Shown here: positions 320-51,149 of the stretch, one piece after another | Layout of the letters: every line of letters starts with the position of its first letter | Position numbering within the stretch: position 1 is the first letter of the stretch | DNA from: a bacterium | GTDB lineage: Bacteria > Vulcanimicrobiota > Vulcanimicrobiia > Vulcanimicrobiales > Vulcanimicrobiaceae | Direction of reading: 5' to 3' | DNA length: 51,149 bases | Assembly: GCA_021806945.1 (NCBI GenBank) | Contig: JAKAPQ010000001.1 | Span: 1 to 51,149 of the forward strand | The notes under the pieces: model-generated | What the model saw: the letters and a program-made list of their open reading frames with translations, nothing else | What the model was told of the DNA's origin: nothing | Database searches by the model: none | Made by a program: the position numbers and the translations under genes

Positions 320-1426
320 ATGAGCCGCCTTTTGAACGTCCCGGGGTTCTTGTTTTCCCTCTTCTGCTGCGGCGCCGTGTGCTGCGGCGCCGTGCTCGCG
401 AGTTGCAGCGGCCCGGGCGGGAACGCCGGTGTCGTTCCGCAGCGCTCGCCCACGGCCACGCCCACGGCCACGCCCACGGCCACGCCCACGGCCACGCCCA
501 CGGCCACGCCCACGGCCACGCCCACGGCCACGCCCACGGCCACGCCCACCTCCGGGCCTGCGCCTGCGTCCGGGACCACGTACGTCTTCAACGATACATC
601 ACCGTCCGGCATCGAAGCGTTCGCTCCGAATGCAAACGGCGCCGCCACGCCGGTGAGCTCGTTCACGTTCTCTTCCAGCAGCTACATACCGGGCATAACG
701 GTCGATGCTACCGGCCGCGTTTACGTCGTGACCTCCGGCGGCATTATCTCATTCGCATACGGTGCAACCGGAAGCGCAACGCCGTCGACCACGCTCACGA
801 CCGTAACGGCCGGCTGGGGGCTCGCGATCGACCCGAGCGACAATCTCGTGGTCACGGATTACAGCCACAACCTCGTGGACTTCTTCGCTCCGGGAGCGAA
901 CGGCAGTGCCGCTCCGTTCAAGCAGATCTCCGGCAGCAGCACGCAGATCAACTATCCCTACCAGGCCGCATTCGACGGCAGCGACAACCTCTACGTGCTC
1001 AATGCAAATAGCCCCAGCAGCATCACGGAGTATTCCGCCGCCTCCATAGCGGGCAGCGGAACGATCGATGCGGCGCCGATAGCCACAATCACCAGTTCGT
1101 CGAGCGCACTGGATGGCCCCGAGGGGCTTGCCGTCGATTCGACCGGGCGCATCTACGTCGGTAATTCCGGGAACAACACGATCTCCGTCTTCGCTCCGGG
1201 CTCGAACGGGAACGTAGCTCCCGCCGCGACGCTCAGCGGCAACAGCATCGGATTCTCGATCAATCAGGCAACGATTGCGGTCGACTCGTCAAACGATTTC
1301 TACGTGGCCAGTTCCGATTCGAGTAATGCGGTCTACGTTTTTGCCCCGGTAACTTCGTCGGCGCAGACGCCAATCCGCACCATCACGGGAGTCACGTACC
1401 CGGGCGGCATCGGGATCGTGCCTTGA
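320..1426 (+). CDS. lipoprotein with a (TPTA)n linker and an NHL/YncE-like beta-propeller repeat domain
   Basis: The N-terminus has a signal peptide with a lipobox (VLASC). It is followed by about 8 TATP repeats. Blade-like segments then recur, each with the motif (V/F)FAPG(A/S)NG(N/S)(V/A)AP and 'D..G.(I/L)YV' strands. Confidence 0.75.
   Translation: MSRLLNVPGFLFSLFCCGAVCCGAVLASCSGPGGNAGVVPQRSPTATPTATPTATPTATPTATPTATPTATPTATPTSGPAPASGTTYVFNDTSPSGIEAFAPNANGAATPVSSFTFSSSSYIPGITVDATGRVYVVTSGGIISFAYGATGSATPSTTLTTVTAGWGLAIDPSDNLVVTDYSHNLVDFFAPGANGSAAPFKQISGSSTQINYPYQAAFDGSDNLYVLNANSPSSITEYSAASIAGSGTIDAAPIATITSSSSALDGPEGLAVDSTGRIYVGNSGNNTISVFAPGSNGNVAPAATLSGNSIGFSINQATIAVDSSNDFYVASSDSSNAVYVFAPVTSSAQTPIRTITGVTYPGGIGIVP
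448..549 (+). repeat. 12-bp tandem repeat (gcccacggccac) x ~8.5, inside the lipoprotein CDS
   Basis: Perfect 12-bp periodicity from 448 to 549. It is in frame and encodes the Thr/Pro/Ala linker. Confidence 0.95.
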
Positions 1427-8068: not shown

Positions 8069-10118
8069 GATTCCCTCCGGTATACGGCTCTCCCAGCCGG
8101 ACCTCGATCATCTGCGAGCCGCGCTGCAGCTCGAACGAGTGCGGTTTCCCGTCGTAGGCGCGAAGTTCCGTTTGATAGGTTCCATAATCCCACCAATACT
8201 TTCCGTCGAGTTTCTCGACGACGTCGTTAGTGCGCATGCCGGCATCGTAGGCGGGGCCTCCGGCCCGGACGAAGCAGCGCATGTTGCCGTCGACCGTTTT
8301 GAACAGCGCGAAAAAATAGGTCGGCTTGTCGCCGGGAGCCCAGGCAACGCCGTGCGCGAAGAGATTATGCGCGTGCCGGGGATGGGCCGCGCTCCAGCGG
8401 CGCATCCGCGCCAGCCCCTGCAGGGCCAGACGCTTCACGTCGGCCGGTTGCGGGCCGTTGCGAAAGACCTCGTGGTCGTGCCACTCGTCGACCTCCCAAC
8501 CGCCGCAATCGCTCAGCCGCACGCCGATGTCGAGATCGGTGCCCTCGATCAGCTTGAACGTCGTTGCGGTCGCGGTCACGAACGCGGCATAGCGTTTCGC
8601 GCTGCAACCGGTTGCATTCGGATCGGCGCCGGAAGGGAAGGCGCGCACGCTTTGCCGCCAGAGGTTGAGGCCGCGGACGATGGTCGCCGCCGCGAGCCTC
8701 CCCGCCGCGCTTCCATCGCTGCCGACCCCAACGCGATAGGCCGCGCCGGATGGCGCGAACAGCCCGGGAAACGCCGGCGCGGCGGTCGCTGCCGGCTCGG
8801 CCGCGGCCGCCTGCGCAAGCATGGCGGCGAACGGGCGCAGGCCGAAAAGCGCAGAGGATGCGGCCACGACGGCTATGCACGCCGCGGTCGCGACGGCAAC
8901 TTGATAGGGAAGCGTGCGCTTCGTTATCTCGGCAATCGGTACGCCCGTGAAGTTGGCCACCCAGACGTTGGACGTATTGGTCGGATCGCAGACGTTCTGT
9001 ACTTGCACGACGGCCATGATCGCCGCAACCAAAATGACGGGCGGGAACACGTGCCCTACCAGCAGTGCGGTGAAGACCGCGATGCCGACGCCGAAGGGGT
9101 TGAGCGGGCCGCGATAGAGTACGAGAGGGCTGGCGAGGCCGAAGAGTGCGACGAACGCAAACGGGTTACGCAGCGCCCCCGCCTCCGCAAGCGGCCGCAG
9201 CGCGGCCGCGAACTGGGGCGTCTTGGTGGCGACGAGCAGCATGCCGATGCCCATGAACAGGACGATCGCCGGTGCGACGTCTTCGACGCCGCGGATTGCC
9301 GCCGCCGCAAGCGTCTGCACCACGAGCCGCGGTCTGGTTGCGAGCGCTCCGTAGAGCGCCGCAAGGATAAACGCCAGCGCCGGATCGAGATGGAAGCCGA
9401 AGTAGAGCGCGATCGGAAGAACGGGCGTTACGAGCGACCACCAGGGTAGCGCGCGGCCTTTTTCGCCGCCGGGCGGGGCGGCGACCGCCCAGGCGGCATA
9501 GCCCCGGCCCGCGCGAAACGACGCGGCCGCGTACGCGAGCAGCGCGACGAGGTCGATCGCCGCCAGGAGCAGCGCGTACGGAAGCATCTGCTGCGGCGTG
9601 ACGCCGAAGAACTGCGTGTAAAATTTCCAGTTTACGATGTTGAAGATGAATCCGAGCGCGAAGGCCATCAAGAACATCGTCGCGGCGATCTTTCGCGGTA
9701 CGCCCGTCGTCATCATGACCGGCAATACGATCGAGCCCACCATGATGATCGCGCCGAGCCCCGAGAGCGAAACGAAGAGCGCGGCGACGGCCGCGCTCAG
9801 TATCAGCGCCACGACCGGCGGGCGATCGCCGCCGAACTCGGCGGCGAAGTTGACGATGCTGCGCGCGATGCCCGTATCCAGCGTGACGCGGCCGAGCATC
9901 GCTCCAAAAATGACGGTAACGTATACCGAGGCCAACGACGCCGCGCCCGCGACGACGATCGTGGCCGCGCCGTTCCACGGTACGCCGGCGGCCAGCGCCA
10001 TGCCGACCGCCATGGCCGGAAGGGCCAGGAGCGCGGGCACGACGCGCGCGAACATGAGCGCGGCGAAGAGCAGAAAGACGGCCAGGATCGCCGCGCCGCT
10101 AAGCATCGCAGCCGCCAT
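7797..10118 (-). CDS. ion-transporter-superfamily-like permease (CitMHS/GntP/DcuC-like, ~450 aa, ~12 TM) fused to a ~250-aa soluble C-terminal region ending in a PDZ-like module
   Basis: The first ~450 aa carry many hydrophobic helices. The C-terminal segment 'FVRAGGPAYDAGMRTNDVVEKLDG...FELQRGSQMIEVRL' fits the PDZ pattern. The last ~90 codons (7797-8068) overlap the M20 gene and are Arg/Ala/Gly-rich, so the true 3' end is uncertain. Confidence 0.7.
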   Translation of the reverse strand: MAAAMLSGAAILAVFLLFAALMFARVVPALLALPAMAVGMALAAGVPWNGAATIVVAGAASLASVYVTVIFGAMLGRVTLDTGIARSIVNFAAEFGGDRPPVVALILSAAVAALFVSLSGLGAIIMVGSIVLPVMMTTGVPRKIAATMFLMAFALGFIFNIVNWKFYTQFFGVTPQQMLPYALLLAAIDLVALLAYAAASFRAGRGYAAWAVAAPPGGEKGRALPWWSLVTPVLPIALYFGFHLDPALAFILAALYGALATRPRLVVQTLAAAAIRGVEDVAPAIVLFMGIGMLLVATKTPQFAAALRPLAEAGALRNPFAFVALFGLASPLVLYRGPLNPFGVGIAVFTALLVGHVFPPVILVAAIMAVVQVQNVCDPTNTSNVWVANFTGVPIAEITKRTLPYQVAVATAACIAVVAASSALFGLRPFAAMLAQAAAAEPAATAAPAFPGLFAPSGAAYRVGVGSDGSAAGRLAAATIVRGLNLWRQSVRAFPSGADPNATGCSAKRYAAFVTATATTFKLIEGTDLDIGVRLSDCGGWEVDEWHDHEVFRNGPQPADVKRLALQGLARMRRWSAAHPRHAHNLFAHGVAWAPGDKPTYFFALFKTVDGNMRCFVRAGGPAYDAGMRTNDVVEKLDGKYWWDYGTYQTELRAYDGKPHSFELQRGSQMIEVRLGEPYTGGNRDEDRRADRRLLRRARERVPRRVEGVDRDTVDQRGSRVSRAGAALLRAFGRSNAGGRHGVGVARNRRQPARLRAVAGRAGQADDAGLRAL

Positions 10119-18130: not shown

Positions 18131-20256
18131 GCGCGCAGAAACCGCTCGAACTCCTCGGGCTCGAGCGGCTTGGAGAAATAGTATCCTTGGATGAGGGTGC
18201 AGCCAAGCGATGCGAGTATGTCGACTTGTTCGCGCGACTCGGCCCCCTCGGCGATAACGGTGAGATTCCGCCCACGCGCCAGCGCGATAATCGCTTGCGC
18301 GATCGCGGATTCGAACGGATCGCGACCGAGATCCTGCACGAAGCCGCGATCGATCTTCAGCGTGTCGATAGGAAAATGTTTCAGCTGCGCGAGAGAGTTG
18401 TTGCCCGTTCCAAAATCGTCGACGGCGATCGACACGCCCATATCGCGTAACCGTTGCAGCGTCGCACGCCCTTCCCCGGCGTCCCGTACTATGACGTTCT
18501 CGGTAAGCTCCAAGGAGAGCATCGAAGCATCCAACTTCGTGTCGGCCAGCACGGTCCGCACCAGATCCGCGATGGGCTCTCGGTTGATCTGCTCGGCCGA
18601 CACGTTCACGGCAACGCGGAGCGGCGTTCCGAGCGCGGACCAGCGCCGGGCCGCCGCACAGGCTTCGCGCAGCACCCACGCGCCGATCGGAACGATCAAC
18701 CCGCTTTGCTCCGCGACCTCCAAGAATGACTCGGGCCCCAGAAGGCCGCGCTCCGGGTGCTGCCAGCGTATCAGCGCCTCCGCCGAGACCGCGCGCCGCG
18801 TGCGAAGATCGATGACCGGCTGATAGACGAGCCGGAACTCGCCGGCGAGAAGGGCCTTTGACAGATCCATCTCAGTCGCCAATCGCTCTGCTGCCGCTTG
18901 GCGCATCTCGGCGGCGAAGAAACGAGCACCCTTATCGCGGGTGATCTCTTTCGCGTGGGACAAGGCGGTATTGGCACACGCAACCAGATCTTCGGAAGCC
19001 GTTGCATCGTCAGGATACAGCGCAGCGCCGATGCTCGGGACAAGCCGCAACTGATGGCCGCCGATGGCGTACGGCGCCGACAGCCCCCCAAGGAGATTTT
19101 TCGCAAACCGGGAGACGCCGGACCGGTCGCCTAAATCGTCGCGCACGATCACGAAGTTGTCGCCGCCCCACCGGCCGACTATGCCGCCGCGCGCAGGATG
19201 CTGCGCCGTCATCCGCCGGCCGATTTCGACCAGCAGCCGGTCGCCGAAGGCGTGGCCGAGCGTATAGTTGATCGCTTTGAGACCCTGGAAGTCGATGAAG
19301 AGCAGCGCCAATCGCGAATCGGACGCTCCTCCCGGCGTGGCCACCGATTGCAGATACGTTTCGATCGCCGTGCGGTTCGCCAAGCCTGTCAGATGATCGT
19401 GCTCGGCCAGATACGCGAGCCGCTCCTCCGCTCGAACCGGTTCGGTGATGTCGTGAAGCGTACCGATCATGCGGCTGGGAGTGCCTCGTTCGTCGTACTC
19501 GTACCAACCGCGCGCATGCACCCAGCGCACCTCACCATCGGCGCGGACGACTCGGTGGCGAAGTTCATACGGCTTACCGCTGCGGCGTGCCTCTTCCAGC
19601 GTCCGTTTGACCAATTCGACGTCTTCGGCGTAGGTGTAGCGCGAGGCCGCGTCCGAGGTCGCGTCGATGGGAGCGTAGATCTCCTCCCGCGAACGCCCGA
19701 AGATTCGATACATCTCGTCGGTCCATATCACCTCGCCCGTCATCAGGTTGCGATACCAGATCCCGATGTGGCCGACTCGCTGCACCGCCGCCAGCACGGA
19801 TTCCGTTTCCGCGCGGGCGCGCAAGGCGTTGAGACGTTCCGTAACGTCGTTGAGCATGACGAAATTCGCCGGACGCCCACCCACCTCGACGCGGTTGGTC
19901 GTAATCTCGACCTCGAGGATGCCGCCGTCGCGCTTTCGGTGGCGGACCGCTCCCCAGTACACTAGCCCGGGCTTGTCGTTGGCGACAACATCTTTCAGGG
20001 CTTGGTCGCCGTCCTCGGGGAGGCGGACCTCTTTGACCGTCATCGCGAGGAACTCGTCGCGAGAGTAACCGTAGTGCGCTATTGCCGCATCGTTGACGTC
20101 GAGAAACCGGAACGTCTCAAGGTCCCATATCCACATCGGATAGGGATTCTTGCGGAAGAACTCGCGGTACGACCACGACGACTCCCGCCAACTAGGTTCC
20201 TCCGTAACTCTGGGTGCCTCTGCACTCTCCTTGGCCGCCACTACGTCGGTTGCCAT
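18028..20256 (-). CDS. PAS-PAS-GGDEF(degenerate)-EAL signalling protein, likely a c-di-GMP phosphodiesterase
   Basis: Two PAS-like modules. The GGDEF site reads 'RWGGDNFVIV' (E to N). The EAL domain looks intact ('EALIRWQHP', 'DDFGTG', 'KIDRGFV'). The 3' end overlaps the convergent oxidoreductase gene by 103 nt. Confidence 0.9.
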   Translation of the reverse strand: MATDVVAAKESAEAPRVTEEPSWRESSWSYREFFRKNPYPMWIWDLETFRFLDVNDAAIAHYGYSRDEFLAMTVKEVRLPEDGDQALKDVVANDKPGLVYWGAVRHRKRDGGILEVEITTNRVEVGGRPANFVMLNDVTERLNALRARAETESVLAAVQRVGHIGIWYRNLMTGEVIWTDEMYRIFGRSREEIYAPIDATSDAASRYTYAEDVELVKRTLEEARRSGKPYELRHRVVRADGEVRWVHARGWYEYDERGTPSRMIGTLHDITEPVRAEERLAYLAEHDHLTGLANRTAIETYLQSVATPGGASDSRLALLFIDFQGLKAINYTLGHAFGDRLLVEIGRRMTAQHPARGGIVGRWGGDNFVIVRDDLGDRSGVSRFAKNLLGGLSAPYAIGGHQLRLVPSIGAALYPDDATASEDLVACANTALSHAKEITRDKGARFFAAEMRQAAAERLATEMDLSKALLAGEFRLVYQPVIDLRTRRAVSAEALIRWQHPERGLLGPESFLEVAEQSGLIVPIGAWVLREACAAARRWSALGTPLRVAVNVSAEQINREPIADLVRTVLADTKLDASMLSLELTENVIVRDAGEGRATLQRLRDMGVSIAVDDFGTGNNSLAQLKHFPIDTLKIDRGFVQDLGRDPFESAIAQAIIALARGRNLTVIAEGAESREQVDILASLGCTLIQGYYFSKPLEPEEFERFLRAQSQRTNIFPKFSPRSKPINARGAFSRPSTTSSR

Positions 20257-24550: not shown

Positions 24551-24644
24551 TGGCGGGAAAGTGTTGGAATCGAACCAACCAACCGGCTTGCGCCGGCCTC
24601 AGCGGTTTTGAAGACCGTGCGGGCCACCAGACCCGTACTCTCCC
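24551..24644 (-). tRNA. selC: tRNA-Sec (anticodon UCA)
   Basis: Minus-strand sequence: GGGAGAGTACGGGTCTGGTGGCCCGCACGGTCTTCAAAACCGCTGAGGCCGGCGCAAGCCGGTTGGTTGGTTCGATTCCAACACTTTCCCGCCA. The acceptor stem is 8 bp (GGGAGAGT/ACTTTCCC, one G-U). The T arm is 5 bp (GTTGG-TTCGATT-CCAAC). The anticodon loop is CTTCAAA (UCA). The long variable arm CCGGC-GCAA-GCCGG has a GNRA cap. Discriminator G and CCA are encoded. selA and selB are in the same window. Confidence 0.9.
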
Positions 24645-40046: not shown

Positions 40047-40103
40047 GCCGTTCCGGGATACAAGCACTAGCGCCGAAGCGGCACCCTGTGGTAGAACTGG
40101 CCA

Positions 40104-41933: not shown

Positions 41934-42425
41934 ATGGTTCACGCTCCAAGAGACGTCGGGCGCCACGTCGCCGCCGAAGGGCGGTCGATCGCACAGGGGT
42001 TCGTCCGGTTTTTGCTGCGTGGGAAAGTCGTCGATCTCGCGGTCGCCGTCGTCATCGGCGCGGCGGCCGGCACGACCATCACGGCGTTCGTAAAGGATAT
42101 CTTCACGCCGATCGTCGGCGGGATCTTCGGTTCGCATGCCGATTTTTCAGGACGTTTTATCGCTTGGCGAGGTTCGGATATCCGCTACGGCGACTTCATC
42201 AACGAGCTCCTTTCGTTCCTGGTCATTGCGGCGGTCATCTATTTCTTCGTCATCACGCCGACGAACAGACTCGTTACCAACGCCTATTTCGAGCCTCCGC
42301 CGGACCCGGCGATGCGCAAGTGCCCGGAATGCTTGAGCGACGTTCCAAGAGCCGCCAAACGATGCATGTACTGCGCCCAGCCGCTGGAACCGCTCGTCGA
42401 AGAAACGCCGGCAGCCCTAGACTAG
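41934..42425 (+). CDS. mscL: large-conductance mechanosensitive channel MscL with a C-terminal CxxC...CxxC zinc-ribbon tail
   Basis: 'FLLRGKVVDLAVAVVIGAA...FVKDIFTPIVGGIFG...YGDFINELLSFLVIAAVIYFFVI' is the MscL core. The tail is 'KCPECLSDVPRAAKRCMYCAQPL'. There is a ~20-aa N-terminal extension relative to typical MscL. Confidence 0.85.
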   Translation: MVHAPRDVGRHVAAEGRSIAQGFVRFLLRGKVVDLAVAVVIGAAAGTTITAFVKDIFTPIVGGIFGSHADFSGRFIAWRGSDIRYGDFINELLSFLVIAAVIYFFVITPTNRLVTNAYFEPPPDPAMRKCPECLSDVPRAAKRCMYCAQPLEPLVEETPAALD

Positions 42426-42486
42426 CAGGTTGCGGAAAAACCCCCGCCGCCGTCTCGAACCCGCGGGTTTTTTCGCAACCTGCTAG
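42422..42486. terminator. long inverted repeat between convergent mscL and clpB, a candidate bidirectional terminator
   Basis: The arms are CTAGCAGGTTGCGGAAAAACCC (42422-42443) and GGGTTTTTTCGCAACCTGCTAG (42465-42486), complementary with one mismatch. The inner CCCGCGGG plus T6 looks like a rho-independent terminator on the plus strand. Both stop codons lie inside the outer CTAG of the arms. Confidence 0.5.
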
Positions 42487-45110
42487 GCGGCCGGCGGCGG
42501 CTCTTCTACCGCGAAGGAGAGCTCGCCGCGAGCGTCGTCGAGCCGGGCGGTCACATGGCGCCCGTCTTGAATCTCGCCCGAGATGATCTTGCGCCCAAGC
42601 GGCGTCTCCAAGCCCTTCTGAATCGCCCGCTTGAGCGGGCGCGCGCCGTAAACCGGATCGTAGCCTGCAAGCACGAGGTGTCGCTTCGCCTCCGGCGTGA
42701 GCTCGAGCGTGATCCGCCGTTCCGCCAGCCGCTTGCGCAAGCGCTCCAACTGGATCTCGATGATCTCTGCGAGCTGCTCCTCGGTCAGCGCGTGGAAGAC
42801 GATGATCTCGTCGACGCGGTTGAGGAACTCCGGCCGAAAGTGCTGGCGCAGCTCGTCGAGTACCGTCGCGCGCATCACCGCATACTCCGCGCCGGAGTAA
42901 CCGCCCTTGTAGTCGAGGATGCGATGGCTTCCGACGTTCGACGTCATGATCAGGATCGCGTTCTTGAAATCGACCGTGCGGCCCTGACCGTCCGTGAGGC
43001 GGCCGTCGTCGAGAATCTGCAAGAGCACGTTGAAGACGTCGGGGTGCGCTTTCTCGATCTCGTCGAAGAGCACGACCGAATACGGACGGCGGCGGACCGC
43101 TTCGGTGAGCTGGCCGCCTTCTTCGAAGCCGACGTATCCGGGCGGAGCGCCGAGCAGCCGCGCGACCGTGTGGCGCTCTTGATACTCCGACATATCGATA
43201 CGAATCATCGCGCGCTCGTCGTCGAACAGATAGACGGCAAGCGCACGCGCGAGCTCGGTCTTTCCGACGCCCGTAGGACCGAGGAAGATAAAGGAGCCGA
43301 TCGGGCGATTGGGGTCGGCCAGACCGGAGCGCGAGCGCACGACGGCTTCGGCAACCGCATCGACCGCCTCGTCTTGCCCGACGACGCGCCGGTGCAGCTC
43401 GTCGGCGAGCTGCAACAACTTGATCGCCTCGCCTTCGAGCAGTTTAGTAACGGGAATGCCCGTCCAACGGCTGATGACCTCGGCGATATCCTGCTCGTCG
43501 ACCTCTTCCTTCGAGAGACGCTTCGCACCGTCGCTGGAGGTCAAGTGCAGCTCTTCGGCCCGCAGCTGCTTCTCTAGGCCCGCAAGCGTGCCGTAACGCA
43601 GCTCGGCGACGTGGTTGAGATCGTACTGGCGCTCGGCCTGTTCGATCTGCACCTTGGTCGTTTCGATTCGCTCGCGCAGCGCGCGCAGGTCGACGGCCGC
43701 GCCCTTCTCGGCCGCCCACTGCCCCTGCAGGCGGTCTCGATCGACTTTGAGGGATGCGACCTCGCTCTCGAGCTTCTCGAGGCGCCGGGAGCTCTCCGCA
43801 TCGCTCTCCTTACGCAGCGCCTCGCGCTCGATCTCGAGCTGCATGATGCGGCGGGTCAGCTCGTCGAGCTCCTGCGGCATCGAATCGATCTCGGTCCGCA
43901 GCTTGGCGGCCGACTCGTCGACCAAGTCGATCGCCTTGTCGGGTAAGAAACGGTCGCTGATGTAACGGTTGGAGAGCGTCGCCGCGGCAACCAGCGCCGA
44001 GTCTTTGATGCGCACGCCGTGGTGCGCCTCGTACTTCTCCTTGAGGCCGCGTAAAATCGAGATCGTGTCTTCAACACTCGGCTGGTCGACCAGCACCGGC
44101 TGGAACCGCCGCTCCAGTGCCGCGTCCTTCTCCACATACTTCCGGTATTCGCCGAGCGTAGTCGCGCCGATCATGTGGAGTTCGCCGCGCGCGAGCATCG
44201 GTTTCAGCAGGTTGCCGGCGTCCATCGAGCCTTCGGTTTTCCCCGCACCCACGACCGTGTGCAGTTCGTCGACGAACAGCACGATCTGCCCCTCGGAACT
44301 TTGCACGTCTTTGAGGACCGCCTTGAGCCGTTCTTCGAATTCGCCGCGATACTTCGCCCCGGCGATGAGCGCGCCCATATCGAGCGAAACGATGCGCTTC
44401 TCCTTCAGACCTTCCGGGACGTCCCCGCGCACGATGCGTTGCGCCAGCCCCTCGACGATGGCGGTCTTGCCGACGCCCGGCTCGCCGATGAGCACGGGGT
44501 TGTTTTTCGTGCGCCGCGAGAGCACTTGGATAACGCGGCGAACCTCGTCGTCGCGGCCGATCACGGGATCGAGCTTGCCGCGCTCGGCTTCGCGCGTCAG
44601 ATCTCGGCCGTAGCGTTCCAGGCTCTTATAGGTGCCTTCGGGATTCTGCGTTGTGACCCGCTGGTTGCCGCGGACGTCGCGCAGCGCGGCGAGCAACTTG
44701 TCGCGCGTGAGGCCCGCGTCGCGCAAGACGCGGCCGGCCGCCCCGCCGGAGTGCAGCATCGCGAGCAAGACGTGTTCGACCGAGATAAAGTCGTCTTGCA
44801 GCGACTTCGCATCGCTCTCGGCCTGCGTCATAAGGCGCGTTAACTCGGGAGCGACGGTCACCTGCGCGCTGTCGGCATTCGAACCGGTCAGGCGCGGCAA
44901 AGCGCCGATCGCCTGATCGGTACTCCGCGAAAGCCTCCGAACGTCGGCCCCTGCTTTCGCGAGCACGTCGCGAGCGATCCCTTGGTCTTGATCGATAAGG
45001 GCGGCGAGCATGTGCTCGGGGGTCGTCTGCGCGTTGTGTTCGTTGAGGGCGCGCGTGTAAGCGGCGTTGAGCGCGTCCTGTACGCGCTCGGTCATGCGGT
45101 CTGCGTTCAT
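42483..45110 (-). CDS. clpB: AAA+ disaggregase ClpB
   Basis: ATG at 45110 with a GAGG RBS. Clp N-domain. NBD1 '[15 protein letters not shown]'. Long coiled-coil middle domain. NBD2 '[16 protein letters not shown]'. Length is 875 aa. Confidence 0.95.
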
Positions 45111-45120
45111 GGCTCGCACC

Positions 45121-46152
45121 TCATAACGGCGGAGCGGGCGCCAGCGGTTGCACTTCCAAAGCGCGAACCGCATCGATGGCGGTGAGATGCCGCCGTTTCG
45201 CGGCGTCGTCCAAGAACGACGCGTGAAAACCGTTCTTTGCGAGCGTGACGACGTCGTCGTCGGAGAGCGCCAGCGCGCGAACGGACTCCGCGTAATTCTC
45301 GTTGACGTAACCTCCGAAATAGGCCGGATCGTCTGAGTTTACGGTCGCGAGCAGACCGAGATCGAGCATCGCCTTGAGAGGATGGTGCGCGAGGCCCTCT
45401 ACCACGTGGAGCCGCACGTTCGAGAGTGGGCAAACCGTCAAGGGCATCTTCATGCGGCGCAGGCGATCGACCAGCCGCGCGTCCTCGAGGGAGCGGATCC
45501 CGTGGTCGACGCGCGAGACCTTCAAAATATCGAGCGCCTCCCACACGTATGCCGGCGGACCCTCTTCGCCCGCGTGAGCGACCGTAAGGAAACCCTCGGC
45601 TCGCGCGCGATCGAAGACGAGTTCGAACTTCGACGGCGGGTTTTGCCGTTCGGCCGAATCCAACCCCACGGCGACGATCCGGTCGCGATAGGGCAGCGCG
45701 CTCTCGAGCGTCTCCATCGCCGACGCCGCCGAGAGATCGCGCAGGAAGCACATGATCAGCTTCGTCGTCATGCCGAAGTGGGATTCGCTCTCGCGCAGCG
45801 CCGACCACAGGCCTTCGACCACCGTTTCGAGCGGGACGCCGCGGCTCGTGTGCGACTGCGGATCGAAGAATATCTCCGCGTGCTTGACGTTTTGCGCGCT
45901 GGCGCGCCGCAGATACGCCACCGCCATATCGTGGAAATCGCGCTCGGTGCGCAGGACGGTGACGCCCGCGTAATAGAGGTTCAAGAACGACTGGAGATCG
46001 GAGAACGCGTACTCGGCACGCAGCGCGCCGACGCTCGGGTAGGCCAGGCGTACGCCGTTGCGCTCCGCCATCTCGAAGATGCTCTCGGGTTCGAGGGTGC
46101 CTTCGATATGGAGGTGGAGTTCGGCTTTGGGAAGCGTGGCGACGTCGATCAT
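45121..46152 (-). CDS. adenosine deaminase family protein (adenine-deaminase type)
   Basis: '[17 protein letters not shown]', 'HAGEEGP' and '[11 protein letters not shown]' are metal and catalytic motifs of the ADA family. The [10 protein letters not shown] variant is typical of bacterial adenine deaminases. Confidence 0.85.
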
Positions 46153-48022: not shown

Positions 48023-49381
48023 CTACCGGATCGCAGCCTGCAGCGCCGTAAGCACGGCGGCGTCCTGTTCCGGGGCGACCGTTCGCAGGTCAAAGAGCAA
48101 GGCGCCGTTCTCGACGCGCCCCACGAGAGCGGGCTCTCCTCGGCGCAATCTAGCCGCGAACGCATCGGCTCCGGCGGGCGGGCGCAGGGAGACCGCAATC
48201 GAGGCGATCTCGGTCTCCGGCAGGCAACCGCCGCCGACGCGCGCGCTGCTCTCCATCACGCAAGCGCCGAGTACGGCCGGCAGCTCGTCCACGTAGCGCT
48301 GCGCGCGCGACCGAAGCTCCCGCTGCGGTGCGCCGAGCATGCGGTAGAGCGGGATGGCTTCGAGGCCCTCCGCGGAGAGATAGAGCCGCAGCGTCGCGCC
48401 CAAAGCTGCGATCGTCGACTTGTCGACGCGCAGGGCACGCAGGAGCGGATTGTCGCGCAAACGCGCGATCAGCGGTGCGGTGCCGACGACGATGCCGGCC
48501 TGCGGCCCGCCCAAGAGCTTGTCGCCGGAAAACGCGACCGCGTCGATGCCGTCGCGCACGGCCTCCTGCACGGTGCGCTCGTGCGGCAAACCGTACGCGG
48601 CCAGATCGACGAGCGCTCCGCTGCCGAGGTCTTCGACGACGGGCACGCCCACGCGCTTACCGAGCGCCGCGAGTTCCTCGGGCGGCACGTCGTGCGTGAA
48701 ACCGGAGATCCGGTAATTCGAGGCATGCGAGCGCAGGAGCAGCGCGGTATTCGGCGTCAGCGCGCGCTCGTAATCGCGCAGGTAGACTTTGTTGGTCGCG
48801 CCGACTTCGACTAAGCGGGCGCCGCTGCGTTCGAGTACGTCCGGTAAGCGAAAGCCGCCGCCGATCTCGATGAGCTGATTGCGCGCGACGATCGCCTCGC
48901 GCCCCTTTGCGAGCGTGTCGAGAATCAAAAGCACGGCCGCCGCGCAATTATTGACGACGAGAGCGTCCGGCGCGCCGGTGATCGCCGTCAGCAGCGCCGT
49001 CACCCGTGCGTAGCGCGAACCGCGGGCGCCGGCCTGCAGATCGAACTCGAGATTGGAGTAACCACCTCCGATCCGGCGAACCGCATCGAGCGCCGCCGGA
49101 GCGAGCGGCGCGCGCCCGAGGTTCGTATGAAGCAGTACCCCGGTCGCGTTGATCGTTTCGAGCAGCGTCTGCGTACGCTCGCGCTCCAGGCGATCGATTA
49201 CGCCCGCCAGCAACGCCTCATACTCCGGAAGAGGAACGCGGCTTCGCGCGTCATCGAGCTCGCCGGCGATCGCGCGCTTGACGTTTTCGCGGCCGAGCGC
49301 GAACTCGTAGCGGCGCACGGCAGGCTCGTCGAGGAACCGGTGCACCGCCGGGATCGCGGCGAGCGACTCCCGCCCGTTCAA
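48023..49381 (-). CDS. selA: L-seryl-tRNA(Sec) selenium transferase SelA
   Basis: 'NATGVLLHTNLGRAPL', 'EFDLQAGARGSR' and the PLP-Lys context 'FSGDKLLGGPQAG'. I chose the TTG at 49381 because it overlaps the trxA stop (TTGA) and gives an N-terminus 'NGRESLAAIPAVHRFLDEP', similar to SelA N-termini. Confidence 0.9.
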   Translation of the reverse strand: MNGRESLAAIPAVHRFLDEPAVRRYEFALGRENVKRAIAGELDDARSRVPLPEYEALLAGVIDRLERERTQTLLETINATGVLLHTNLGRAPLAPAALDAVRRIGGGYSNLEFDLQAGARGSRYARVTALLTAITGAPDALVVNNCAAAVLLILDTLAKGREAIVARNQLIEIGGGFRLPDVLERSGARLVEVGATNKVYLRDYERALTPNTALLLRSHASNYRISGFTHDVPPEELAALGKRVGVPVVEDLGSGALVDLAAYGLPHERTVQEAVRDGIDAVAFSGDKLLGGPQAGIVVGTAPLIARLRDNPLLRALRVDKSTIAALGATLRLYLSAEGLEAIPLYRMLGAPQRELRSRAQRYVDELPAVLGACVMESSARVGGGCLPETEIASIAVSLRPPAGADAFAARLRRGEPALVGRVENGALLFDLRTVAPEQDAAVLTALQAAIR

Positions 49382-49710
49382 GCGGGATTCAGGTGTCTGC
49401 TCAACATCGACGCGATCGTCTGTTCGGGGACGTATCCCACGATGCGATCGACGGCCTGGCCGCCCTTGAAGAGAATCAAACACGGTATGCCCGATACCTG
49501 GTAGGTTCCGGCCAAGCTCGGGTTTTCATCGGTATTGAGTTTCATGAACTTCGCCTTGCCCGCATGAGAAGCGGCGACTTTCTCTACGATCGGCGAGAGC
49601 ATCTTACACGGACCGCACCACGGCGCCCAGAAATCGACCAGCACGGGCTGCTCGTTCCCCAGGACTTCCTGCTGAAAAGTGGCTTGCGAAACGTCTGCTA
49701 TTGCGCTCAT
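49378..49710 (-). CDS. trxA: thioredoxin
   Basis: 'VLVDFWAPWCGPCKMLSPIV...GIPCLILFKGG'. 110 aa from the ATG at 49710. The upstream 39 codons of the tracked ORF fall in the repeat region and are discarded. Confidence 0.9.
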   Translation of the reverse strand: MSAIADVSQATFQQEVLGNEQPVLVDFWAPWCGPCKMLSPIVEKVAASHAGKAKFMKLNTDENPSLAGTYQVSGIPCLILFKGGQAVDRIVGYVPEQTIASMLSRHLNPA

Positions 49711-49751
49711 GGTTTTTCGTTCGATCCTCCAGTCATATGTAACACCCGTTA

Positions 49752-49989
49752 CCGGGCCGTGAGTTGCGTCTACGCTAACGTGAAAACGGCGCATCCGCGC
49801 TGCGCGCTCCGCGCCCCCCGTCGGCAAAGCCGCCGGGGCCCCCGGCCTTCGGCCCCAGTCGCATTTTCAACCGGGCCGCGAGTTGCACCTAAGCTAACGT
49901 GAAAACGGCGCATCCGCGCTGCGCGCTCCGCGCCCCCCGTCGGCAAAGCCGCCGGGGCCCCCGGCCTTCGGCCCTCGCGCATTTTCATC
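49752..49989. repeat. two tandem copies of a ~119-bp GC-rich structured element
   Basis: Copy A is 49752-49870 and copy B is 49871-49989. The 82-nt core 49774-49855 is identical to 49893-49974. The flanks differ by a few substitutions and one 1-nt indel. Confidence 0.9.
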
Positions 49990-50028
49990 CGCTTCCGTGT
50001 GGCCCCCGGGGCCATGGCTTACGATCGG

Positions 50029-51149
50029 CTAGATCTCCGGCTGCTGCGGCTCGCCGGTAATGCCGGTGATCTGTTCGGCCTGCTTACCCATATTGGTTAT
50101 GGCTATCACCTCGTCGCCATCACCCAAACGCTGCAGGCGAACCCCTTTGGTAGAGCGGCCCGCTTTGCGAATATCTCCGACCTTCAGGCGGATTACCTGA
50201 TTGGCGGAAGTGATCATGAGAATTTCGTCGTCGCGCGCCACCATTATTTGGTCGACCACGTGGCCGATGTCTTCGCGCTCCTTGGCGAATGCCTTGACCC
50301 CCTTGCCGCCGCGCGACGTATGGCGGTACTCGTCGATCGCGGTCCGTTTACCGAAGGCCCTGGAGGTGACCAGCAAGACCTCCTTGCGGTCCTCTTCGAC
50401 GACGTCCATCGCGACGACGGAGTCTCCGCGATCCAGCGACATCGCCTTGACGCCGCGCGCGTTGCGACCCATGGGGCGGACGTCCTTCTCGTTGAAGTGT
50501 ACGGCCATCCCGACGGTCGACCCGAGGATGATATCGCGCGATCCGTCCGAGAGATCGACCGCGAGCAGCTCGTCTCCCTCGTCGAGGTTGATGGCGTTGA
50601 GGCCGTTGCGGCGCACGTTGGCGAACGCCTCGAGCTTCGATTTCTTGATGACGCCGTTCTTGGTAACCATGACGAGATACTTCTCGCCTTGAAACTTGTC
50701 GATCGGGAAGACCGCCGAGACTTGCTCGCCCGGGGGCAGCGTCAACAGATTCACGAGCGCCGTGCCGCGCGCTTGCCGCGTCGTATCAGGGATCTCGTAG
50801 CCCCGCAAGCGATAGATGCGGCCCTTGTTCGTAAAGAACAGCACGTGATCGTGCGTGCTGGTCGTAAAGAAATTTCGCACGACGTCTTCACGCTTGAGAT
50901 TGCTGATGCCGATCACGCCGCGGCCGCCGCGGTTTTGCGTCTTGAACGTGTCCGTCGAAACGCGCTTGATGTAACCGCCGACCGTATACGTAACCACGAC
51001 CTCGGTGTCCGGAATCAGCGCCTCGACGGAGAACTCGTCTTCGGCCGGCACGATCGCCGTACGGCGCTCGTCGCCGAAGCGCTTCTTCATATCCAGCGCC
51101 TCGACTCGCACGATCCCGGCGATGCGCCGGTCGCTCCCGAGAATATCTT
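50029..51149 (-). CDS. gyrA: DNA gyrase subunit A, C-terminal part (gene continues beyond the right edge)
   Basis: GyrA C-terminal beta-pinwheel repeats: 'YIKRVSTDTFKTQNRGGRGVIG', 'FFTNKGRIYRLRGYEIP', 'QARGTALVNLL', 'VMVTKNGVIKKS'. The frame stays open to base 51149. Confidence 0.95.
   Translation of the reverse strand, partial: DILGSDRRIAGIVRVEALDMKKRFGDERRTAIVPAEDEFSVEALIPDTEVVVTYTVGGYIKRVSTDTFKTQNRGGRGVIGISNLKREDVVRNFFTTSTHDHVLFFTNKGRIYRLRGYEIPDTTRQARGTALVNLLTLPPGEQVSAVFPIDKFQGEKYLVMVTKNGVIKKSKLEAFANVRRNGLNAINLDEGDELLAVDLSDGSRDIILGSTVGMAVHFNEKDVRPMGRNARGVKAMSLDRGDSVVAMDVVEEDRKEVLLVTSRAFGKRTAIDEYRHTSRGGKGVKAFAKEREDIGHVVDQIMVARDDEILMITSANQVIRLKVGDIRKAGRSTKGVRLQRLGDGDEVIAITNMGKQAEQITGITGEPQQPEI

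Follow-up and report, generated by a model that had tools for sequence, protein, structure and literature searches.

The 51,149-nt stretch of contig JAKAPQ010000001.1 analysed here (the window) came from an uncultured lineage of the Vulcanimicrobiaceae (Eremiobacterota) of mine-drainage, soil and sediment communities. A spacer of 318 nt (49711–50028) separated the gyrA stop codon (50029–50031) from the trxA start (49710), and all genes flanking this spacer were called on the minus strand. The spacer held two head-to-tail units of about 119 bp, as the first-pass annotation of the stretch had described. Tandem Repeats Finder returned a single array (49751–49991) with a period of 119, 2.0 copies and 93% matches. 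The longest identity at this period spanned 82 nt (49774–49855 = 49893–49974), and a 76-nt probe taken from it matched exactly at two positions of the 51-kb window, against a chance expectation of 0. The units showed 9–10 mismatches, every one outside the 82-nt run (probability approximately 5e-4 to 2e-3, corrected for run placement), which agreed with the description of an identical core between variable flanks. The pair also looked non-coding, as proposed: 119 is not divisible by three, and no reading frame was common to both units. The indels found among natural copies of the unit (1, 2, 7, 8, 46 and 47 nt) likewise argued against coding. Very probably, a single member of an intergenic repeat family was locally reiterated in tandem to give the pair. 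[quoted passage not shown] The repeat represents a new family of this well-known kind and belongs to no named family.

Related contigs were reached via the 90% cluster of SelB, whose members are named Vulcanimicrobiaceae bacterium at NCBI, and Logan contigs of mine-drainage and sediment metagenomes (including runs X1, X2, X5 and X6) were aligned to the region. The surrounding genes of these relatives were approximately 95–96% identical to those of the window. Six contigs (L038, L039, L042, L046, L048 and L049, from four metagenome-assembled genomes (MAGs) or assemblies and one Logan run) shared the gene order TsaE/gyrA/trxA/selA/selB/add/clpB with the window. They encoded an 835-aa gyrA product and had a spacer of only 59 nt (GCGTAGACGCAACTCACGGCCCGGTAACGGG...), with a junction reading ...GAGATC GCG TAG ACGCAACTCACGGCCCGGTAACGGGTGTTACATACGACTGGAGGATCGAACGAAAAACC ATG. 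The window differed from these relatives by exactly 49776–50031, placed between GAGATC and GCGTAG. The first three bases of this block, TAG, became the stop codon, so that gyrA of the window lacked the terminal alanine (834 vs 835 aa). The same empty joint was found in X5 (on a 19-kb contig), in X6 and in a second strain of X1, where 49775 was joined directly to 50032, with 256 nt skipped and 0 letters shared at the joint. The block was thus an insertion relative to the relatives, without target-site duplication. A third lineage (L050–52) had a 120-nt spacer with an unrelated 57-nt palindrome, TAG-CAGGTTGCG...CGCAACCTG, at the identical point after GAGATC. Nine related contigs (L038, L039, L042, L046 and L048–52) thus had gyrA, trxA, selA and selB in the order of the window, and none of them carried the repeat unit in the gyrA-trxA spacer.

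Within the 82-nt run, an invariant core of 68 nt was present in many copies. Its word depth reached 3726 in X1 (approximately 3700), compared with 54–66 in the flanking genes, and approximately 680–790 in X5 and X6, compared with 15.6–18.4 in the flanks. Across four metagenomes the core was about 40–60 times deeper than the flanking genes, equalling some 40–60 copy equivalents per genome, or at most this number should the element be shared by several members of the community. Sequences past the unit ends were heterogeneous, as seen in loose-end contig pieces. A protein search with the plus-strand frame-1 translation of the units returned nothing. Other copies were located through spurious open reading frames (ORFs) read across the element, whose contigs were then fetched, and those at HisK-BipA came to light among the SelB-derived contigs. 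Four further, unrelated loci held the core, which faced either way with respect to the adjacent genes (Table 1). All located core copies adjoined an ORF 3' end or lay no more than approximately 80 nt from it, often donating the stop codon of that ORF. In the L033/L034 copy, the TAG of the convergent gene sat within the end of the unit itself, GTAGAAACGG. These dispersed copies, in both orientations and at ORF 3' ends, bore out the REP/MITE-like extragenic element that the first-pass annotation had offered as an alternative. The earlier view of the core as either constrained or recently homogenized was correct and is explained by what the core is, the unit that the many copies of the family have in common.

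The HisK-BipA spacer was a second polymorphic site. Where a full unit was present, it took the place of 14 nt, while L046 contained only a 27-nt, internally deleted remnant of the unit. The 14 nt of the window, CGGAACGGCCTATG, were faintly similar to the 5' extension of the unit, CGGAAGCGGATG, and may, judged from this resemblance, represent a decayed unit remnant. Deletion variants of the unit lacked 7–8 nt or 46–47 nt, and some of these deletions removed whole hairpins. Most copies were single, and further head-to-tail joints had spacers of 4, 13 and 28 nt. A search with a 20-mer of the unit end against the genome contig collection gave five matches, all chance matches of 20–29 nt in unrelated taxa, and a 19-mer gave 24 matches in the metagenome contig collection, with extension at chance level (19–24 nt; three reached 52 nt at 83%). 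A profile of the unit, searched with nhmmer over approximately 330 kb of sequence, detected no diverged copies beyond those reported here.

Table 1. Features of the gyrA-trxA locus and located copies of the repeat unit. Coordinates are those of the window.
Feature	Position	Strand	Basis or remark
trxA, 110 aa, first gene of trxA-selA-selB	49378–49710	−	ORF and Pfam Thioredoxin matches
Native trxA leader, kept in relatives	49711–49775	−	One substitution in L038, L039, L042, L046, L048 and L049, where it is joined straight to gyrA
Ribosome-binding site GGAGGA in native trxA leader	49722–49727	−	Sequence
Palindrome GTAAC-N4-GTTAC in native leader, kept by all relatives	49739–49752	−	Sequence
Flank segment N, 25 nt	49751–49775	−	In relatives contains the original last codon and stop of gyrA (GCG TAG)
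Inserted block, 256 nt, absent in relatives; no target-site duplication, no flank deletion	49776–50031		Logan and related contigs
Repeat unit copy 1 (trxA-proximal)	49780–49870	−	Boundaries from depth profile and contig pieces
Spacer N', single-copy, 21/25 identical duplicate of native N (49751–49775)	49870–49894	−	Alignment of N and N'
Repeat unit copy 2 (gyrA-proximal), core 49907–49974, 5' variant GCGCGAGGG	49899–49998	−	Alignment
REP-like hairpin module GTAA-GCCATGGC-CCCGG-GGGCCACACGG (gene strand)	49995–50022	−	Depth and rebuilt copies
gyrA stop codon TAG, first three bases of block	50029–50031	−	Comparison with relatives
gyrA, 3' part, running past the window edge	50029–51149	−	ORF and called genes
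Second polymorphic site (HisK-BipA spacer), unoccupied in window	40047–40103		Alignment and nhmmer
Copy L031/L032	Between MlaD stop and ApbA start		Antisense to both genes; 11 nt from MlaD stop
Copy L033/L034	Exactly between TAA stop of amino-acid permease and TAG stop of convergent gene		Unit ends supply TAA and TAG
Copy L035–37	MgsA-aminotransferase		Co-directional; 68-nt core 100% identical, flanks unrelated
Copy L042/L048/L049	HisK-BipA, full unit		Terminal TCA reads TGA on the opposite strand, the stop of HisK

The inserted block was a mosaic. On the gene strand it read TAG CCGATC, the hairpin module, GAAGCGGA, unit 2, GTTA, N', unit 1 and GTTA, followed by the native N. Unit 2 was composed of TGAAAATGCGCGAG, the core (49907–49974) and GTTTTCAC, and unit 1 of TGAAAATGCGACTG, the core (49788–49855) and GTTTTCAC. 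The gene-strand 5' and 3' ends of unit 1 were TGAAAATGCG and CGCCGTTTTCAC, and its 5' variant was GCGACTGGGG. The 5' extension of unit 2, GGAAGCGGATGA (49985–49996), was common to the L031 copy. Word depth in X1 fell in steps toward gyrA, from approximately 3000 in the core to 1400–1800 at the unit end, 600–1000 in GGAAGCGG, 360 in the hairpin module and 43 in gyrA, indicating that the modules were common to nested subsets of copies. The depth of the hairpin module in X1 was 360–600, compared with 43 in the flank, and its depth ratios, a metagenome estimate, were approximately 6–13. Six further copies of this module were rebuilt from loose ends, giving seven copies in all. The arms, CCATGGC and CCACAYGG, enclosed a variable centre that was self-complementary on folding in some copies only. 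The module heads were GTAG (two copies), GTAA (two copies), GTGA and GGAA (one copy each), with none in the remaining copy, and each head region held a stop codon.

The junction between N' and unit 1 (CCCGGT|TGAAAATG) joined the end and the start of the 119-nt segment, the mark left when unit and flank are duplicated together in tandem. The N segment of the window was identical to that of the 59-nt-spacer lineage; N' matched no sampled lineage. In X1 and X2, the flanks were 100% identical to the window and both outer junctions were found, with zero depth over the inter-unit positions 49860–49894 at ≥97% identity. These two metagenomes therefore probably carried a single unit, in which case no fewer than four alleles of different length would exist at gyrA-trxA (59, 120, probably 199 and 318 nt), with 0, probably 1 and 2 units.

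The pattern in X1 and X2, together with the absence of words of N' from every indexed run, would also fit an assembly artefact, in which the real locus holds a single unit and the second unit and spacer were stitched in from another strain or locus. The source (sample ERZ27237364) was a short-read metagenome assembly containing several related strains. Such an artefact is in our view unlikely: being unique sequences, N' and the 5' variant of unit 1 must have come from reads of that sample. Moreover, the shared run of 82 nt is shorter than the k of 141 implied by the contig name, so that, as far as can be judged from assembler behaviour, the join would need spanning reads. Other head-to-tail arrays of the family also exist, and the identity of the element would be unchanged even if the pair were an artefact.

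The first-pass annotation had favoured a tandem riboswitch-like leader RNA. Such a double aptamer would be a cis-regulatory RNA leading trxA-selA-selB and sensing a thiol or selenium signal. The position of the pair upstream of trxA on the gene strand and the identity of the core in both copies are consistent with this view, as is the minimum free energy fold of the trxA-proximal unit, which on the gene strand was a four-way junction closed by A/U-rich ends. The imperfect end complementarity (TGAAAATGCG/CGCCGTTTTCA) and short G/C hairpins of the proposed multi-hairpin structure were present in the units, and in the L031 copy a U.G pair of the end helix was replaced by U-A. However, the stability of the fold was no greater than that of dinucleotide shuffles, either for the two strands of the spacer (z = −0.78 and −0.72), for the two window units on the gene strand (z = +0.15 and −0.42) or for units taken singly from five loci (z from −1.4 to +0.8). 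Such hairpins come free in sequence of 65% G+C. The covariation check on the closing helix and hairpins gave no support either: the internal helices were invariant across five independent copies and, as they never vary, are uninformative either way on structure, while the end helix was paired in 76.7% of cells with one double change, and its covariation among the five copies was no better than with shuffled partners. The internal hairpins were likewise constant among seven copies, and the closing helix was missing or broken in the more divergent of them, with breaks in L033, L035 and L042. A search of the spacer with cmscan against Rfam 15 found no family at the gathering thresholds, and up to E = 10 only chance fragments of vertebrate long non-coding RNAs (22 bits, with a cut-off of 45). 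ARAGORN detected no tRNA-like gene in the units despite their cloverleaf-like topology.

The riboswitch-like reading was refuted by a criterion that the first-pass annotation itself had set, many dispersed copies lacking a consistent gene context. A ligand-sensing leader of trxA-selA-selB would not be expected to be missing from every relative with the operon, yet the nine related contigs had an intact operon and a leader without the element. The element occurred in approximately 40–60 copies per genome equivalent, and among the four unrelated loci one copy was antisense to both neighbours and one lay between convergent genes, a dispersal without consistent gene context. Its indel variants deleted whole hairpins. 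The element is not a ligand-sensing leader, and we regard the double aptamer as extremely improbable. Tandem riboswitches, such as the glycine riboswitch, share with the pair only that two similar structured units stand in a row upstream of a gene; here there was no family match, positional conservation, covariation or fixed orientation, and the dozens of copies stood in unrelated contexts. The proposal of a gyrA terminator found no support either, as no promoter-like or terminator-like site, including a GC hairpin with a U run, was detected on either strand of 49711–50028. The GTAAC-N4-GTTAC palindrome noted earlier near the trxA ribosome-binding site was indeed there, but was not significant alone (1 occurrence vs 0.47 expected at one mismatch) and was part of the native leader.

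The interspersed family to which we assign the pair most resembles the GTAG-tagged REP/BIME elements (Di Nocera et al. 2013, PMC3733652). REPs are palindromic and carry a GTAG-type head, and their loops can be long and self-complementary. They are sited between genes that run in one direction or converge, as a rule ≤20 bp from ORF 3' ends, and their GTAG termini frequently provide TAG stops (PMC3733652). In the published degenerate forms of GTAG, the G at the fourth position is retained, and REP clusters are reiterated together with flanking DNA (PMC3733652). Similarly, the repeat described here was palindromic, extragenic and high in copy number; it stood between unidirectional or convergent genes, a few bases from ORF 3' ends, and often supplied the stop codon. 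It was mosaic in make-up, with a module of conserved arms, variable centre and GTAG-like head, its clusters were tandemly reiterated with flank, and it was inserted without target duplication. The hairpin module at 49995–50022 agreed with the imperfect, stem-loop-forming palindrome of about 20–40 bp that is typical of REPs. In contrast to such a single palindrome, the most abundant module was the 68-nt multi-hairpin core, and head-to-tail arrays, said to be rare for REPs, were frequent. Eremiobacterota were not among the phyla of the REP/BIME survey (PMC3733652), and no gene for a REP-associated tyrosine transposase (RAYT) is known for this lineage.

The repeat also resembled bacterial MITEs (Correia/NEMIS, ERIC, RUP, Chunjie and QMITE2; PMC10969869) in being small (approximately 90–125 nt), non-coding, dispersed and, among relatives, polymorphic. 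Further points of likeness are short inverted repeats at the termini (TGAAAAYGSCGC), copies that vary in size or are truncated at the 5' side, and the location, mostly in ORF 3' untranslated regions as for QMITE2 and at times within an operon (PMC10969869). The terminal repeat, TGAAAAYGSCGC/GCGCCRTTTTCA, was imperfect and approximately 11–12 nt long; both window copies, L031 and L042 had it, L046 had a shortened version, and, as a difference from MITEs, some copies lacked it. Unlike MITEs, the sole clean pair of filled and empty sites showed no target-site duplication, and no parent insertion sequence was identified. Pneumococcal BOX elements are modular intergenic repeats in which the internal module boxB is reiterated. 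The present family is likewise modular, with one module tandemly reiterated, stem-loop rich and probably transcribed with neighbouring genes; its sequence and host are unrelated, and here the whole unit with its flank, not an internal boxB, was reiterated.

We also compared the pair with the mycobacterial interspersed repetitive unit (MIRU) type of minisatellite, direct tandem units in operons whose small ORFs couple the translation of the flanking genes. Units of approximately 90–120 nt stood in direct tandem at several intra-operon loci, the copy number was polymorphic at gyrA-trxA as it is strain-variable in the MIRU variable-number tandem repeats of mycobacteria, and the estimate of 40–60 loci is near the 41 MIRU loci (PMC5056196). 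However, MIRUs have no obvious palindromes, keep a single orientation to the adjacent gene and contain small ORFs (PMC5056196). None of these three defining features holds for the units described here, which were hairpin-rich, occurred in both orientations and shared no reading frame. With the indel sizes given above and most copies being single, a MIRU-type minisatellite is highly unlikely. Among other candidates, an integron attC site was rejected, as the GTTAGC adjoining the unit does not fit GTTRRRY, and a retron, a CRISPR-like array and a small-peptide gene were dropped, the same indel sizes arguing against coding.

The units of the REP/BIME- or MITE-like family would have spread as non-autonomous DNA mobilized in trans. 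A hairpin-recognizing Y1 transposase of the RAYT or IS200-IS605 type is the leading, though tentative, candidate for the mobilizer, one that we would place somewhat short of probable; the hairpins at the ends, the heads resembling GTAG and the lack of a duplication on insertion would all fit it. At gyrA-trxA, slippage or unequal recombination may have produced the second copy by duplicating the unit along with its flank, as described for REP clusters, and later exchange with other copies would then have homogenized the core. Gene conversion or recombination between lineages likely lies behind the differences between the two units. For the host, the insertion and reiteration would have lengthened the gyrA-trxA spacer from 59 to 318 nt, about fivefold, and shortened gyrA by one codon. 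They would also have added stable hairpins within the probable gyrA-trxA-selA-selB co-transcript, where these could form a putative barrier to 3'-exonucleases or a partial terminator.

Several observations weigh against this interpretation. The copy number is a ratio of metagenome depths. The two-copy allele is known from the contig of the window only and was found in no public run. The two window units differed at too many positions outside the core for a simple recent duplication, and the 5' variants GCGACTGGGG and GCGCGAGGG each recurred in other copies. Mobilization is inferred rather than shown: no Y1 transposase or RAYT was found among the called genes of the fetched loci or the 28 window ORFs scanned with Pfam, and the search did not extend to whole genomes. 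The GTAG head was exact in two of seven module copies, and the terminal inverted repeat was short and imperfect, absent in L035 and partial in L033. Finally, the core was 100% identical across lineages that were only approximately 95–96% identical in their genes, which also fits purifying selection.

This last point leads to a reading in which the units are a host-beneficial RNA or DNA module under selection, for instance a small RNA present in many copies, an element that stabilizes or attenuates mRNA 3' ends, or a site bound by a protein of nucleoid or gyrase type. A core conserved in full despite 4–5% gene divergence, the siting where ORFs end, whether inside transcription units or between them, and a metatranscriptome contig with two units from another locus are consistent with this, and such roles have been proposed for REPs (PMC3733652). 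On the other hand, presence of the unit was variable among close relatives at both comparable loci, remnants and internal deletions occurred, both orientations were used, and there was no excess folding stability. The evidence at the RNA level was one low-depth contig that read-through or carry-over of DNA could explain, and a beneficial role would not exclude mobility. We therefore give this reading only a small chance. Similarly doubtful is a more specific version, in which the invariant 68-nt core, rather than being simply young, is held by selection. It might be the structure that a domesticated hairpin-binding transposase recognizes, or a transcript-end element determining the fate of mRNAs at dozens of operon junctions of Eremiobacterota. 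If it were true, the perfect identity across lineages of approximately 95–96% gene identity would reflect function, and the gyrA end, which two different palindromic families occupy in two lineages, would be a selected, not merely tolerated, site.

The metatranscriptome contig (X23, 156 nt) came from another locus and contained a unit end with the hairpin module, a 28-nt spacer with GAGGAG-N5-ATG and the next unit; it aligned to window positions 49916–50004 and then 49788–49826. Either some arrays are transcribed or DNA was carried over, as judged from this single low-depth contig.

For annotation, the assignment of the pair to an interspersed repeat family means that the leader of trxA-selA-selB no longer holds a riboswitch candidate, which was a false one. 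The family breaks short-read assemblies of Vulcanimicrobiaceae MAGs and generates spurious small ORFs (P0001–P0003). It adds Eremiobacterota, a little-studied and so far unsurveyed phylum, to the hosts of REP/BIME-like repeats and provides clean cases of elements landing on last codons and donating stops, with the gyrA end used by two unrelated palindromic families. The length-polymorphic locus (59, 120, probably 199 and 318 nt) could mark strains in acid-mine-drainage communities. None of this would surprise a specialist in bacterial repeats.

The second, unrelated palindromic family, TAG-CAGGTTGCG-(8–39 nt)-CGCAACCTG-CTA, is a REP-like element that donates TAG stops. It was found at 42426–42482 of the window, at 8191–8247 of L050, L051 and L052, and at 18580–18605 of L046. 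In the window its two ends coincided with the TAG stops of MscL and ClpB, so that it took up precisely the space separating these convergent genes; elsewhere it occupied the gyrA-trxA insertion point in one lineage and stood beside the remnant unit at HisK-BipA in another. The 59-nt-spacer lineage contained a DsbA-family gene between clpB and mscL (15546–16187 in L042, L046 and L048) that was missing from the window (41934–45173) and from L051, and the window junction without this gene holds the palindromic element. Beside the core copy of L035 (5200–5275; also in L036 and L037) lay a separate, near-perfect palindrome of approximately 70 nt, AACGGGAAATGTTAAGGGGGTCGGG-CTTTA-CCCGATCCCCCTCAACAACTTTCCCGTT, which is another intergenic hairpin element or a terminator.

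Downstream of the spacer, the 59-nt-spacer lineage had a 12-nt insertion, GCTCCCTAGCAG, at 49375, where the selA start overlaps the trxA stop, and its SelA measured 456 aa compared with 452 aa in the window and L050–52. The only real RNA gene in the window was tRNA-Sec (24555–24644, minus strand; Rfam RF01852, 70 bits), approximately 22 kb from selA-selB, so that the selenocysteine machinery was split over the window. A perfect tandem repeat of 12 nt × 8.6, CGCCCACGGCCA, at 447–549 in the ORF 320–1426 (plus strand) encoded (PTAT)n, a linker after the lipoprotein-like signal peptide of an NHL-repeat protein and a likely length-variable site.

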